Source: a virus
Lineage: Duplodnaviria > Caudoviricetes
Virus record (IMG/VR): IMGVR_UViG_3300028586_000020
Location: 1-64,000 of that record
Reading direction: 5' to 3' (one strand)
DNA: 64,000 nt
Shown here in pieces: positions 2,440 through 63,998 of the stretch (the stretch's first letter is position 1; the number at the start of each line of letters is the position of its first letter). The translations under genes were made by a program, and so were the position numbers. Below the pieces are notes generated by a model. The model was given only the letters and a program-made list of their open reading frames with translations. It searched no databases and was not told the origin of the DNA.

Positions 2440-2844
2440 ATGAACTGGTTTACAAGCCGTGTTGTTGAAAGTGCGTCGGTGCAAGAAAAGCAGAAACTGC
2501 TAGCCCAAGACGGGGGCTGTGAGCACGTGGAAACAGATGCTAGCCTAGGCTATATCGTTCACACTGAACGCGATAGCTTTGGGATTGTTGGGACCTGCTT
2601 GTTGTGTAAGGCTTGCAACGAGGCCGCCCAGGAAGAGGCAGACAACGAAGAGCACACTTGCGTCGATTGCAAACAATCGGTGAAACAGAAGGATGGCATC
2701 TTCTGGAAGTGGTACGACTTCTACGCAGCACAAGGCGACGAAGCCCTGTTTGTCTGCGATTGTTGCAGGACACAACCCGCCCACGTCAATCGGGTAAAAC
2801 GCGACGAACGCGAACGCCAAGAGGAATTTGGCGACGACGATTAA
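2440..2844 (+). CDS. Cys-rich putative Zn-binding protein
   Basis: AAGGAG RBS; CLLCKAC, CVDC and CDCC motifs. Confidence 0.7.
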   Translation: MNWFTSRVVESASVQEKQKLLAQDGGCEHVETDASLGYIVHTERDSFGIVGTCLLCKACNEAAQEEADNEEHTCVDCKQSVKQKDGIFWKWYDFYAAQGDEALFVCDCCRTQPAHVNRVKRDERERQEEFGDDD

Positions 2845-2927
2845 AGCCATCCTCTAACCTGTTCCTTTGTGGAGCAGGTTATGGGCTGTACTTTTACAGC
2901 GTCTATTTTAACTTAAGGAGATTTACC

Positions 2928-3578
2928 ATGAAACGTTTTACCCTCGCAATGCTGTTCATGCTGTCGCTGTTTGGTAACGCCAACGCTGCCATGGTCGGCA
3001 CCCCGATCGACGAAGGCACCACCACGTGCCTCCCGTTTGGCTGCGCCGCCGGCGACGGTCAGTATCAGCAGATCTACTTCGCCGAGTCGTTCAAGCGTGA
3101 CATGAACTTCATCGGCCTGGACCTGATGATCGCGCCGCACTCGATCGGCGCTGGCGAACACTGGCTGAGTGATGGCTTCTTCACCATCACGCTCTCGCTC
3201 TTTAGCCAAGACATGCTGCCGACTGTGGGCATGCTCGGTCACGCTGAGAAGACCGTGTTCAAAGGTTACCTGCCAGCCGCTCAGCGTGGCAATAGCTACC
3301 GCATCAACTTCGACAAGATGTTCTACAACAATTCGGCTGACATCAACAACTTGTTGCTGAACATCAGCTGGACGGGCGCTGCCGCCAGCGACGATCCGAT
3401 CCACTTCACCAAAGCGTCCGGCACCTGGAGCCAGATGATCAAAGATGGCAAAATCGTCGATGCTGAACAATACGGCCTCCTGACCCGTTTTGTCGAAGTG
3501 CCTGAACCAGCCTCCATCGCTCTGATGGGCCTGGGTGTCCTGGGTCTGGGCATCACCCGTCGTCGTCGCAGTAAGTAA
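2928..3578 (+). CDS. PEP-CTERM sorting-domain secreted protein
   Basis: RBS AAGGAG at about 2915; signal peptide MKRFTLAMLFMLSLFGNANA; C-terminal VPEPASIALMGLGVLGLGITRRRRSK (PEP motif, TM helix, basic tail). Confidence 0.9.
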   Translation: MKRFTLAMLFMLSLFGNANAAMVGTPIDEGTTTCLPFGCAAGDGQYQQIYFAESFKRDMNFIGLDLMIAPHSIGAGEHWLSDGFFTITLSLFSQDMLPTVGMLGHAEKTVFKGYLPAAQRGNSYRINFDKMFYNNSADINNLLLNISWTGAAASDDPIHFTKASGTWSQMIKDGKIVDAEQYGLLTRFVEVPEPASIALMGLGVLGLGITRRRRSK

Positions 3579-3591
3579 AGGGAACCAGGTC

Positions 3592-3921
3592 ATGAAAAAG
3601 ATCGTCGCTGTCATCTTTATCGTCCTCGCTAGCATCATCGCGAGTGGTCCTGCTTCGGCGGAATCGAATGTGGGTCAGTGCATGACCTACAAAGCGAAGA
3701 CCGCTAAAAACGGTCGCTTGATTCCACTTAAGCAAGTGGTGGTCAAAGCCCATCCGAACGATAAGGTTGGCAGCACGCCGCAGTTGCCCCTGGCCATGAA
3801 AGTGCTGAATGAAAAAGGCACCATGGTCCAGGTGGCTGACCCGGAAGATGACAGTGTCATCGGCTGGGTATCGATCAAGGATCTGGAGTACCAAGATTTG
3901 CGCAATTGCAACATGTGGTGA
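3592..3921 (+). CDS. Secreted small protein, possibly SH3-like
   Basis: Signal peptide MKKIVAVIFIVLASIIASGPASA; VQVADPEDDSVIGWVSIKDL resembles the end of a bacterial SH3 domain; two Cys. Confidence 0.65.
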   Translation: MKKIVAVIFIVLASIIASGPASAESNVGQCMTYKAKTAKNGRLIPLKQVVVKAHPNDKVGSTPQLPLAMKVLNEKGTMVQVADPEDDSVIGWVSIKDLEYQDLRNCNMW

Positions 3922-4010: not shown

Positions 4011-4433
4011 ATGAATCAAGCACAACAAACCCGTCTGGCCCAATCCCTCAACAGCGTCGAAAAAGACGTGTCGGAAAAACGCGATTTCGATTCCATCTTG
4101 GCCGCCATTAAAGCTAACCACGGTAAGGTGATTGACGATCACCGGTTCCATTGCGGTAGCGGCGAAGAACGCATGCGTTCGGTGTACGCCATCGCCAAGT
4201 TTGGCGACAAGACGGTCTTCCTTTGCAGCCCAGAAGAAACGCCGTATTTCTGCCTGAACGGCATGTATGTCGATCCTGACGGCGTCGCCCATTTGTCCCA
4301 GTGGTCGGTCGGCGGTGTGATCGAGTTCGGTCGTCGTGGCACACTCGACACGGCCATCGCGAAGTACAACGATCCGGCTAGCTGGGTACCTGGTCACAGC
4401 TTCACCCCGATCACCGATGTGACGTACATCTAA
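4011..4433 (+). CDS. Hypothetical protein
   Basis: TAAGGAG RBS; 140 aa. Confidence 0.75.
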   Translation: MNQAQQTRLAQSLNSVEKDVSEKRDFDSILAAIKANHGKVIDDHRFHCGSGEERMRSVYAIAKFGDKTVFLCSPEETPYFCLNGMYVDPDGVAHLSQWSVGGVIEFGRRGTLDTAIAKYNDPASWVPGHSFTPITDVTYI

Positions 4434-4529
4434 TCGTTCTCTCCCACTCATCTGGCCTTATGGCTGGGTGAGTGGGTTGCACTTTGTATCGACCTGCTTT
4501 TCTTTTTGGTTTTTTCTAAGGAGTTTTCC

Positions 4530-4853
4530 ATGGACAAGATCGTTTTCCTAGTACTGTTGCTATTGGCAGGCGCAGTTCACGCTGGTCAACAGCAAGGTTT
4601 TAAACCCGCTTACCCAAAGTCGTACACACAGCGGGTGTACTATACAGTCTACGAAAGTGCAACGATGAACACCCAAGACTTGGGCACGTTAAGCGTTGTG
4701 TTTCGTGGTTGTAAGAAAGTTTCGGCGAGCGACTTTATCCGTCAAGAGAAGCTGGCCTACAATCGTAACATCGCTGGCGCGTTTTATTGCTTGCGTGGTC
4801 AGCACAATGGCGAGTATTATGTCATCGTGAAGAAGCTTAAAGAACCCGAATAA
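4530..4853 (+). CDS. Secreted hypothetical protein
   Basis: AAGGAG RBS before ATG 4530; signal peptide MDKIVFLVLLLLAGAVHA. Confidence 0.7.
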   Translation: MDKIVFLVLLLLAGAVHAGQQQGFKPAYPKSYTQRVYYTVYESATMNTQDLGTLSVVFRGCKKVSASDFIRQEKLAYNRNIAGAFYCLRGQHNGEYYVIVKKLKEPE

Positions 4854-6572: not shown

Positions 6573-6602
6573 TTGTCTCTTTATAAAACGAAAGGAATTA
6601 AC

Positions 6603-7022
6603 ATGGCAACCAAAGCAGGTAAGGTCCAGCTCAAGGACATCAAGCGCGGCAAGACGTTTTACTACGTGCGCGTCGACTTCCCCATCATCTCCGCAGGCGT
6701 GGTAGGATTGGGTGAAGTGGAATCCGTGGTACGTCTACGCGTGACATCGCGACCATATCTGCGTCGTTTGTCCAACACGATGGCGTTCCAGTACATCAAT
6801 GACTCGAACGCGGGTGGCTACATCGATCTCGAACAGATGGAGCGCAACCATCGCCAAAATGAACTGACCGAAGAAGGACAGTATTTTGTCTTGCTGAAAA
6901 GCCGACAGGCCGCAGAACGCTTCATCAAGATGTTCGATGATCGTCCGCCTAGCAAAAAAGAAACGGTGCGTACGCTGTTGCGCGAAGCTAACCTGAACGC
7001 CAAGCAACGCGGTTTCTCCTAA
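6603..7022 (+). CDS. Hypothetical protein
   Basis: AAAGGA RBS before ATG 6603. Confidence 0.7.
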   Translation: MATKAGKVQLKDIKRGKTFYYVRVDFPIISAGVVGLGEVESVVRLRVTSRPYLRRLSNTMAFQYINDSNAGGYIDLEQMERNHRQNELTEEGQYFVLLKSRQAAERFIKMFDDRPPSKKETVRTLLREANLNAKQRGFS

Positions 7023-58387: not shown

Positions 58388-59815
58388 ATGCTCAGCACCA
58401 GCGCGATCTACAAAGCCATTGCCTTGGCTGACCAATTCGATGCTCGCAACATCATCCTAAAACCCCTGGGCGGTTCGCCCCTGCACCACGTCATCGAAGC
58501 ATGCTCGATCAAGCCGGAGATGGCTTCGAAGAACGAAGGCGGTACCGTCGACATCGACTTCTTCCGTATCGACCAAGCGGCTAATGCCAAAGAAGGCGTG
58601 TTCGATCGTTCGCGTCACGATTACGCCATGGCTGACTTCGTGAACCTGGGCGCCGAGACGGTGCGTCGTCAACTGAACGTGGCCCGTAACCTGGTTGCCC
58701 CGCGCGTGCGTAGCCTGCTCGAACTGACCACCATGCGTCTGGCCAATGCTCCGGTGTCGGATCTGTCGAAACTGCGCATCAGCGAAGAAGAAGACTGCCC
58801 AGCCATTTACGGTCCGAACCTGCGCAAACTCGTCGACCAGTACGCCAATTACCACAACGCCGAACCAGCGCTGTCGATCACCGGTTCCGAACTCGGCACG
58901 GCCGACATCCTGAAATACCTGGAAACGGGCATCTCGTCGATCGATGAAGATCTGATCCCATGGGCCGCGTCCCAACCAGAATCGGTCCTGCAAGATGCAT
59001 ACCGCAGCTTCTTCACTATCCTGAATGGGCGCGATGGTCGTGGCTACTACGGCCGCATCAACAAGTCGGTCGTGAAGATGGTGCTGGTGTATTGCATCGC
59101 CCGTCACCTGCTGGAAAACGACATCGTCCTCGACGGCGTGACCCAGGGCCTGAAAGAATACCGCGCCGCCCTGACTGCCATCATGGCCCAAAGCGCCCAC
59201 CTCTTGACCATCGAGATGGAAAAGAATGATTCGGCAATCCAAAACGGCAGCTTGGTGCGTTCGATCACGGGCACCGAAATCCGTGTCTTCCCGCCAGTCT
59301 ACCGCGAATGGCTGAAGAACGGCGGCAACACGGACGTGCTGTATGGCATGGCCAATTCGGGCGAACCCAAGTTCACCGTCGATGCCATCAGCGAAAACGC
59401 CGACAAGTACATGAAGTCGTGGAACAACTACGCTTCGCTTGTCACCGCGCGTGACAGTCTCTCGCGGATGAACTTCCTGCGCGAGCAACTGATCCTGTCC
59501 TACGAAAGCATCATCGCTGCGCCGAACGAAGAGGGCGTCATGCCTGACCCGATCGCCGTGCAAAACGAAATGAACGACTTCCGCGCTGTGCTGCGCACGA
59601 TGTCGTCGATCGATGCCGAAGACCTGGAACTGATGTGCCTGAAGCTGGTCTGCCGTGCATCCTTCGCTGAAACCCCAGCGGAGATGATCCTGACCAAGAT
59701 GGACGAAGAAACCAAGAAGAACCCGAAACTGTCGCCGCGTGAAGCTGGTGCGCTGGCAGTGATCTGGTACGTAGCAGCCTGGGTGTCGTCGCTCATCGAG
59801 CTCGACAACGCTTAA
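58388..59815 (+). CDS. Conserved phiKZ-like protein (position of gp177)
   Basis: 475 aa; synteny between the vRNAP beta gene and the head protease. Confidence 0.65.
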   Translation: MLSTSAIYKAIALADQFDARNIILKPLGGSPLHHVIEACSIKPEMASKNEGGTVDIDFFRIDQAANAKEGVFDRSRHDYAMADFVNLGAETVRRQLNVARNLVAPRVRSLLELTTMRLANAPVSDLSKLRISEEEDCPAIYGPNLRKLVDQYANYHNAEPALSITGSELGTADILKYLETGISSIDEDLIPWAASQPESVLQDAYRSFFTILNGRDGRGYYGRINKSVVKMVLVYCIARHLLENDIVLDGVTQGLKEYRAALTAIMAQSAHLLTIEMEKNDSAIQNGSLVRSITGTEIRVFPPVYREWLKNGGNTDVLYGMANSGEPKFTVDAISENADKYMKSWNNYASLVTARDSLSRMNFLREQLILSYESIIAAPNEEGVMPDPIAVQNEMNDFRAVLRTMSSIDAEDLELMCLKLVCRASFAETPAEMILTKMDEETKKNPKLSPREAGALAVIWYVAAWVSSLIELDNA

Positions 59816-63461: not shown

Positions 63462-63998
63462 TTAGACGTTGATTTGACGATTGGCGATGCTTTGCACGCT
63501 GGCATCGAAACCGACACCACCAGCTGCGCGTACATCTGCGCTGATCTGGTTGATCATGGCCTGTTTCATCATCGGGTTAGCACCGACGTAGTTGACCGTG
63601 TTCAGGATCTGCTGCGCGAACGCGTCGACACCGGGGCCGACTTGGTGCAGGGCGGTGAACGACAGATCGAGCTGGACCGTTTGCATGTCCTGGGTCTTGT
63701 CTGCCGAACCGACGATGTCGCCCGTGCCTTCTGGGAACATGTTGAAGCAGAGCCAGGATTGCTGGACTTTGCGACCGAATGCATCCGGCTCGATGTAGAG
63801 CACGGTCATCGTGGTTTGGTCGGCGAGCAGATCAGGCGCTTGGCCGCTGTTGTAGGCCGCTTGAAACGCTGGCAGGGTGGTCACCATAGGGAACTTGGTG
63901 TCCGGGTCCATGCCCGCATACAGCATCCAGGTTTCGATCAGGCGTTGGATCGGGCGACCGAAGCGTTCGATGTACGAGTGCTTCGGCTGCGATTCAGC
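63462..63998 (-). CDS. Tail tube protein (phiKZ gp30-like), 3' part; continues beyond the window
   Basis: Frame open to the window edge: ERFGRPIQRLIETWMLYAGMDPDTK...EPD...WLCFNMFP...FTAL. Confidence 0.8.
   Translation of the reverse strand, partial: AESQPKHSYIERFGRPIQRLIETWMLYAGMDPDTKFPMVTTLPAFQAAYNSGQAPDLLADQTTMTVLYIEPDAFGRKVQQSWLCFNMFPEGTGDIVGSADKTQDMQTVQLDLSFTALHQVGPGVDAFAQQILNTVNYVGANPMMKQAMINQISADVRAAGGVGFDASVQSIANRQINV

Follow-up and report, generated by a model that had tools for sequence, protein, structure and literature searches.

Protein sorting by PEP-CTERM signals and exosortases is widespread in bacteria of soil, sludge and freshwater, and little is understood of its biochemistry or of what its substrates do. 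In the EpsH/XrtA-type systems of exopolysaccharide-producing Gram-negative bacteria the substrates combine a signal peptide with a PEP motif, a hydrophobic helix and a cluster of arginines. It has been established for PEP-CTERM systems that such proteins are exported by Sec, anchored by their tail, cut by an exosortase at the PEP motif and then delivered outwards (PMC9850573; PMC12188702; bioRxiv 10.1101/2023.06.07.544157). One of them, PepA of Zoogloea resiniphila and Aquincola tertiaricarbonis, is a small secreted betaproteobacterial protein which has been tied to cell aggregation (PMC9850573). The protein described in this work likewise appears to be a small secreted PEP-CTERM protein, but the domains of the two are unrelated at the sequence level.

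Phages are known to carry morons which encode proteins of the host envelope, such as lom and bor of lambda and the exclusion lipoproteins Llp and Cor. These genes belong to temperate or T5-like phages and their products follow lipoprotein or beta-barrel pathways. A protein with a PEP-CTERM domain, HOG10, has been described in the IME1 elements of Dehalococcoides (bioRxiv 10.64898/2026.09.15.751708). In a survey of hot-spring viruses, proteins of the TIGR03118 family were among the cellular genes that these viruses have acquired. In the literature that we searched, no publication describes a PEP-CTERM gene in a tailed phage, which agrees with the preliminary description of the present locus, whose author did not know of such a gene characterised in a lytic phage.

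In this work we have examined a gene in a 64,000-nucleotide stretch of viral DNA (the window), which is part of an IMG/VR virus record of 79,148 bp with an estimated completeness of about 29%; the source metagenomes are reportedly from leaf litter. The gene product shows the same signal peptide, PEP motif, helix and arginine cluster as the bacterial substrates, but the gene is carried by a jumbo phage of lytic type without an exosortase, and the enzyme would be that of the host. Like lom, bor, Llp and Cor, the gene is accessory cargo which probably relies on host export machinery and is patchily distributed among relatives; unlike them, it is found on a phiKZ-like jumbo phage and bears an exosortase tag. 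With IME1 it shares the situation of a mobile virus-like element encoding a PEP-CTERM domain protein, whereas IME1 is integrative, is a putative filamentous or budding virus and has a host in another phylum, and HOG10 has no shown relation to the family of the window protein.

The gene product and its sorting signal

Read directly from the sequence, the N-terminus of the 216-aa product, MKRFTLAMLFMLSLFGNANA followed by AMVG, has a basic n-region, a hydrophobic core and an A-x-A cleavage site, that is, the Sec signal peptide which a PEP-CTERM substrate should carry in addition to its tail (Table 1). Homologues align with the protein from Met1 and keep the signal peptide, and an uncharged run of at least nine residues occurs inside the first 35 residues in 73 of 79 family members. 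The opposite end, VPEPASIALMGLGVLGLGITRRRRSK before the stop codon, places the three parts of the sorting signal (PEP motif, hydrophobic helix and basic cluster) at the extreme C-terminus, the arrangement by which PEP-CTERM proteins are recognised. Both models of this signal score above their curated cut-offs, PF07589 with 29.5 bits (cut-off 20.7) and TIGR02595 with 26.9 (cut-off 16). The preliminary description, which had claimed a signal peptide and a PEP-CTERM tail and had proposed these two HMMs as a check, is thereby borne out, and the tail is exactly as it was quoted there. Since there are hundreds of full-length homologues, and since conservation within the clade of the window protein is higher in the tail than in the domain, a chance origin of the tail pattern is excluded. 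Judged by its sequence, the product can be classed as a bona fide PEP-CTERM protein.

Table 1. Coordinates of the PEP-CTERM gene, its parts and its surroundings in the window
Feature	Positions	Strand	Basis or remark
Variable cargo slot, four genes between conserved phage genes	2440-4450	+	tblastn, PHROG
Slot gene phrog_8344, immediately upstream of the PEP-CTERM gene	2440-2844	+	PHROG match
Hairpin 1, 11-bp stem	2855-2881	+	in the 83-nt gap upstream of the PEP-CTERM gene
Hairpin 2, 6-bp stem, then T-rich run	2885-2900	+	consensus scan: terminator-like site
Ribosome-binding site AAGGAG	2915-2920	+	7 nt 5' of the ATG, read from sequence
PEP-CTERM gene	2928-3578	+	ORF: ATG at 2928, stop at 3576-3578, 216 codons, 216 aa
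Sec-type signal peptide, residues 1-20, predicted cut after ANA	2928-2987 (mature part from 2988)	+	sequence and model helix 5-14
Beta-sandwich domain, residues 21-190	2988-3497	+	AlphaFold, domain-only HMM
PEP-CTERM sorting signal, whole	3498-3575	+	PF07589, TIGR02595, model helix 196-215
VPEP motif, residues 191-194	3498-3509	+	sequence
Hydrophobic helix ASIALMGLGVLGLGIT, residues 195-210	3510-3557	+	sequence
Basic cluster RRRRSK, residues 211-216	3558-3575, then stop	+	sequence
Gene of the 109-aa protein, own signal peptide, N-terminus MKKIVAVIFIVLASIIASGPASA	3592-3921	+	ORF, 13 nt after the PEP-CTERM stop
Slot gene, last of four	4011-4433	+	

Family and fold of the domain

No Pfam or NCBIfam model covers the beta-sandwich domain. 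An exhaustive protein search gave 291 clusters at E <= 1e-3, mostly proteins of about 220 aa which match over nearly their full length with 25-39% identity. An HMM restricted to the domain columns (residues 21-188, without the tail) matches 146 of the 160 proteins collected and also 85 ORFs in named bacterial genomes; the homology covers the full length of the domain independently of the tail, and the window protein aligns end to end. It is a member of an unnamed PEP-CTERM family of about 220 aa marked by the motifs C-x-P-F-G-C and YQQxY. The named members of this family come from Acidobacteriota, Alpha-, Beta- and Gammaproteobacteria, Gemmatimonadota, Planctomycetota and Nostocaceae. PF07589 is carried by 74 of the 79 aligned members, and an exosortase is encoded in five of the six bacterial genomes holding a family member. 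The bacterial proteins have the succession C-x-P-F-G-C ... YQQVY ... GTYTISLSTTS ... YDPxxGNLLLDV, and their length and pair of cysteines are common to the window protein; in contrast to them, the window protein and six homologues form a clade of their own with altered motifs (FTITLSLFS, NNLL).

The best-scoring NCBIfam model was that of the floc protein PepA (NF033554), but with 44.1 bits against a cut-off of 80. When the family was compared with eight PepA proteins by profile-profile alignment (hhalign), only the 34-column tail was aligned. The partial NCBIfam match is therefore due to the tail only, and the window protein is not a PepA. The exhaustive search also listed longer proteins: P0069 (523 aa) has the family domain at residues 311-521 after an N-terminal extension, and in very long proteins (P0010, 2500 aa) as many as 10 stretches resemble the tail. 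Such proteins could be fusions or artefacts of assembly.

An AlphaFold model of the 216-aa protein, built on 79 homologues, has a mean pLDDT of 91, mostly above 90 in the domain, and consists of a helix (residues 5-14), a beta-sandwich (21-190) and a second helix (196-215). The domain contains the motifs C-x-P-F-G-C, YQQxY, FTITLS and NLL. Cys34 and Cys39 co-vary in the family, both being present in 66 of the 79 proteins, neither in 12 and one only in 1; a disulfide between them in the beta-sandwich is probable, and the co-varying pair fits such a bond in an exported, extracytoplasmic protein. Fold searches describe the sandwich as a jelly-roll of the carbohydrate-binding, lectin or PHR type. 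The matches have Z values of 7-10, a range in which only a shared common fold can be claimed, and comprise phage baseplate and tail-tip domains (the top ones, with Z 10.0 and 8.9), PHR domains and carbohydrate-binding or lectin-like modules. In BFVD the model matched fibre proteins, and Foldseek against the PDB gave a single weak match, a PHR domain. No match to the protein was obtained in a sequence search against solved structures, and the ESM Atlas yielded only sub-threshold leads. Taken as a guide, the fold matches suggest that the beta-sandwich may bind glycans.

Genomic setting

In the window the RNA polymerase beta subunits are split (phrog_2986, phrog_3148); a tail-fibre/transglycosylase protein of 2429 aa, a nuclease resembling SbcC and a recombinase resembling UvsX are also encoded. 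Split RNA polymerase subunits, together with a nuclease, recombinase and fibre of this kind, are hallmarks of phiKZ-like jumbo phages. With the RNA polymerase subunit we found seven related IMG/VR records, two of them with terminal repeats (271,026 and 272,470 bp). Among cultured phages, Burkholderia phage FLC9 is closest (54% identity), followed by Ralstonia phages RP31 and RP12 (48%). We read the contig as a fragment of a phiKZ-like jumbo phage of about 272 kb, which is presumably lytic. The flanks of the PEP-CTERM gene are collinear with relatives which have terminal repeats and its codon usage is phage-like, so the view taken in the preliminary description that the gene is phage-borne stands.

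Three genomes (G001, G002 and G003, two of them complete) have an RNA polymerase 82-88% identical to that of the window. The PEP-CTERM gene is absent from all three, in searches that recovered the window's own copy. When their syntenic regions were searched by tblastn, the genes at 159, 2257, 4527, 4996, 6287 and 6603 were conserved and collinear, and the four slot genes found no match. Presence in some and absence from other close relatives at a variable slot is what characterises morons and accessory cargo, and in this respect the PEP-CTERM gene is accessory cargo. It is dispensable, because three close relatives do without it. The slot lies between a small Cys-rich gene (2257-2418) and a conserved secreted protein, and each related jumbo phage (L100, L101, L102) has an entirely different set of small genes there; it is a hotspot of cargo exchange near one genome end.

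The PEP-CTERM gene has a GC3 of 0.759, the highest among the 54 genes of the window (window mean 0.60); only the tail tube gene (PF23806) and a second gene reach a similar value. In codon usage it correlates more closely with the tail-tube class (r = 0.91) than with the core enzymes (0.76). Because of this GC3 and the closeness to the tail-tube class, the gene does not look freshly foreign. The codon pattern hints at high expression, or else the high GC3 could come from a GC-richer donor. The class with GC3 of about 0.75 consists of the tail tube gene, a 475-aa phrog_3841 protein and the PEP-CTERM gene, with members at 58388-59815 (+) and 63462-63998 (-); the phrog_3841 protein may be another abundant protein.

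Upstream of the gene, the region 2842-2935 folds with -28.1 kcal/mol (z = -3.57), and none of 200 shuffled sequences was as stable. The two hairpins in it found no match in Rfam and probably terminate or stabilise the upstream transcript. A scan for sigma-70 promoters is uninformative here, since the phage has its own polymerases. No terminator was found between the PEP-CTERM gene and the next gene, and the two are probably co-transcribed. The 109-aa product of this second gene has no Pfam and no PHROG match. Its only homologues are proteins of 113 aa with 34-36% identity, one of them on a 5.2-Mb NCBI contig; among 401 sampled Burkholderiales genomes, 3 contain relatives of this homologue. The 109-aa protein may be a second envelope protein of host origin in this transcription unit. 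A third small secreted protein, with a signal peptide and the motif AY-x-RNIAGAFYC, is encoded at 4527-4853 (+); unlike the PEP-CTERM gene, it is kept in all three syntenic relatives, with 40-56% identity. Farther on, ARAGORN called a tRNA-Ser(cga) at 6788-6866 (-), inside an ORF (6573-7022) which is conserved in the relatives; the call is probably a false positive.

Copies in related phages and the host

A maximum-likelihood tree calculated from 100 family members groups the window protein with six metagenomic proteins (P0002, P0003, P0006-P0009; SH-aLRT 97) and separates this clade from the remaining 93, which are mostly proteins of named bacterial genomes. The clade branches outside every sampled bacterial group. 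Only two of 401 sampled Burkholderiales genomes hold a full-length member of the family. Within the clade the mean pairwise identity is 63% in the tail and 37% in the domain, and the VPEP motif is invariant in all seven members, whose domains have diverged to 28-73% identity. This better preservation of the tail, together with the invariant VPEP, speaks for selection acting on the sorting signal.

Are the other members of the clade also carried by phages? P0003, which is 52% identical to the window protein, occurs on 4 contigs, the longest of 271,466 bp, and P0157 and P0008, both 34% identical, occur on 2 and 1 contigs, the longest of 273,341 bp. JGI contigs of 189,638 and 272,297 bp encode P0155 and P0008, respectively. 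RNA polymerase proteins 88% and 87% identical to that of the window are found on 4 contigs (longest 271,466 bp) and on 3 contigs (longest 273,341 bp), respectively; P0003 and P0008/P0157 are linked to phage genomes through these matching contig counts and longest-contig sizes alone. As a control, the window protein and its own polymerase both show a longest contig of 100,668 bp in the same independent protein collection. Because the homologues and the polymerases of the group agree in this way, we estimate that the gene is present in at least three genomes of this phage group. The identity of the homologues (34-52%) is far below that of the polymerases (87-88%), and the neighbouring genes at 4527 and 4996 are also only 34-56% identical between relatives; the strong divergence is typical of this region of the genome. 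Our scans of IMG/VR, in which near relatives may have been withheld, found no further copies of the window protein or of close homologues, and neither the protein nor its tail found a match among GenBank phages. A metagenome scan keyed on the tail motif gave 80 loci, all of them tail-only matches and none with the family domain.

The preliminary description had reported no exosortase in the window, and this extends to the whole 79-kb record and to five related phage records (two of them complete), in all of which a search with PF09721 found none. Any processing must therefore be carried out by an enzyme of the host. A Burkholderiales-type host is plausible in view of the nearest cultured phages, and the earlier guess of a betaproteobacterial host, which fits FLC9, RP12 and RP31, can be kept at this strength. 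An exosortase is encoded in 85 of 201 sampled Burkholderiales genomes (a tally that includes the unpublished genome G036), and its presence in the host of this phage is likewise plausible. Lacking a sorting enzyme of its own, the phage probably relies on the exosortase of the host to place the protein in the envelope of the infected cell.

Proposed role and alternative readings

The reading which we favour, with moderate confidence, is that an accessory, moron-like gene of a phiKZ-like phage encodes an envelope-targeted protein which depends on host machinery, and that the resulting change of the cell surface would benefit the phage. The protein would be synthesised during infection and leave the cytoplasm by the Sec route; after removal of the signal peptide, the beta-sandwich would fold in the periplasm and form the Cys34-Cys39 disulfide, and the C-terminal helix would hold the protein in the inner membrane. 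By analogy with bacterial substrates, the host exosortase would then recognise VPEP, cut off the anchor and pass the lectin-like domain to the outer envelope or the exopolysaccharide layer. The delivered domain would most likely bind a surface glycan, if its modelled fold is a guide. The outward face of the infected cell would thereby be changed, and one may speculate, in line with the preliminary description, that this masks receptors, excludes other phages, remodels flocs or alters the cohesion between cells and matrix. We infer the export, the anchoring, the exosortase cut and the delivery from the described systems; the glycan binding and a role in exclusion, receptor masking or aggregation are speculative.

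Could the tail simply be a C-terminal membrane anchor? In that case the protein would remain anchored in the inner membrane, its beta-sandwich would lie in the periplasm, no exosortase would cut it, and it could block the DNA entry of other phages or meet the cell wall or the lysis machinery. This is the main rival, and we consider it unlikely but deserving of serious attention, as the signal peptide, the C-terminal helix and the basic cluster make up a complete type I topology by themselves, the phage encodes no exosortase and a host enzyme is only plausible. A plain anchor, however, needs no motif such as VPEP, which has stayed invariant in a clade with strongly diverged domains, and the bacterial family is tied both to PEP-CTERM tails and to genomes bearing an exosortase. 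That the product is instead a component of the virion or of lysis, such as a unimolecular spanin or a module of the tail tip, seems to us very improbable. The baseplate and tail-tip domains among the best fold matches and the fibre proteins in BFVD would agree with it, and a u-spanin shares an N-terminal signal and a C-terminal membrane helix with the window protein. But besides this helix a u-spanin needs an N-terminal lipoprotein signal with its lipobox Cys, and no such Cys follows the signal peptide in the window protein or in any of the seven clade members. Moreover, a protein exported by Sec would be unavailable for virion assembly in the cytoplasm, and the gene is missing from complete relatives, lies outside the block of structural genes and has no PHROG family.

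It may also be asked whether the gene is of any use to the phage. It could be a passenger acquired from a host and heading for loss, as its absence from the three related genomes and the varying content of the slot would allow; we regard this as quite improbable. The frame is intact and preceded by a good ribosome-binding site, the codon usage matches the tail-tube class of the phage, the protein stands in a clade of its own, of which diverged copies occur in two or more other genomes of the phage group, and its sorting tail is conserved; the intact frame, codon usage, clade and conserved tail point to long retention under selection. Finally, there is the chimeric host contig which the preliminary description had named as a possible refutation, or, more broadly, host DNA on a mis-binned contig or a prophage flank. 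In its favour stand the bacterial nature of the rest of the family and the incompleteness of the record, yet we give this explanation hardly any weight and reject it: phage genes lie directly on both sides of the PEP-CTERM gene on the same strand, the flanks are collinear with complete, terminally redundant jumbo-phage genomes, there is no composition break around the gene and its codon usage is phage-like. The coincidence of the window protein and the phage RNA polymerase in their longest contig, in an independent collection, also speaks against it.

PEP-CTERM tails on other viral contigs

The favoured reading, that the phage has its protein sorted by the host, raises the question of whether other phages do the same. 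A scan of phage databases for PEP-CTERM had been proposed before, and we scanned IMG/VR with the DNA pattern V-P-E-P-x-[S/T-like]-h-x-L-h-G-L-G. This pattern is narrow, and it gave 69 further matches in 68 stretches of DNA (67 contigs; L202-L269), where we estimate that 1-2 would be expected by chance; the case in the window is thus not unique. All 69 lie 22-33 codons before a stop codon and are followed by a basic cluster. Fifty-nine of them are on ORFs of at least 120 aa (median 223 aa), and 43 have a start resembling a signal peptide. Without the tail, these 59 group into 24 clusters, of which the largest have 21 and 10 members; none of the 69 belongs to the domain family of the window protein. 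In each of ten sampled loci the largest neighbouring ORF matched a phage family, such as DNA polymerase, RecT, exonuclease, primase-helicase, methyltransferase or tail fibre.

Phage-encoded substrates of the exosortase type therefore seem to be a wider phenomenon, broad in uncultured phages and absent from the literature that we searched. Tentatively, and with more doubt than conviction, we propose that it is common for tailed phages, nucleus-forming lytic jumbo phages among them, to encode rapidly evolving exosortase substrates of their own and to exploit the PEP-CTERM sorting of their hosts for redecorating the surface or slime layer of the infected cell. If true, this would constitute an as yet undescribed class of phage-host interaction, which might serve superinfection exclusion, receptor masking or the control of aggregation. 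The window gene would be one member of the class, its clade having its only traced copies on phage DNA, beside at least 68 more IMG/VR contigs with similarly tagged genes in at least 24 unrelated protein clusters. Such substrates would show that viruses exploit the PEP-CTERM pathway, and they would offer small, self-contained and naturally diversified probes of it. The genes could also serve as a marker of host range, since the host should encode a matching exosortase, and they suggest a route by which the biofilm, floc or surface properties of infected cells could be altered. Two PEP-CTERM genes each are present on one of the IMG/VR contigs (L228/L230) and at one locus (L232).
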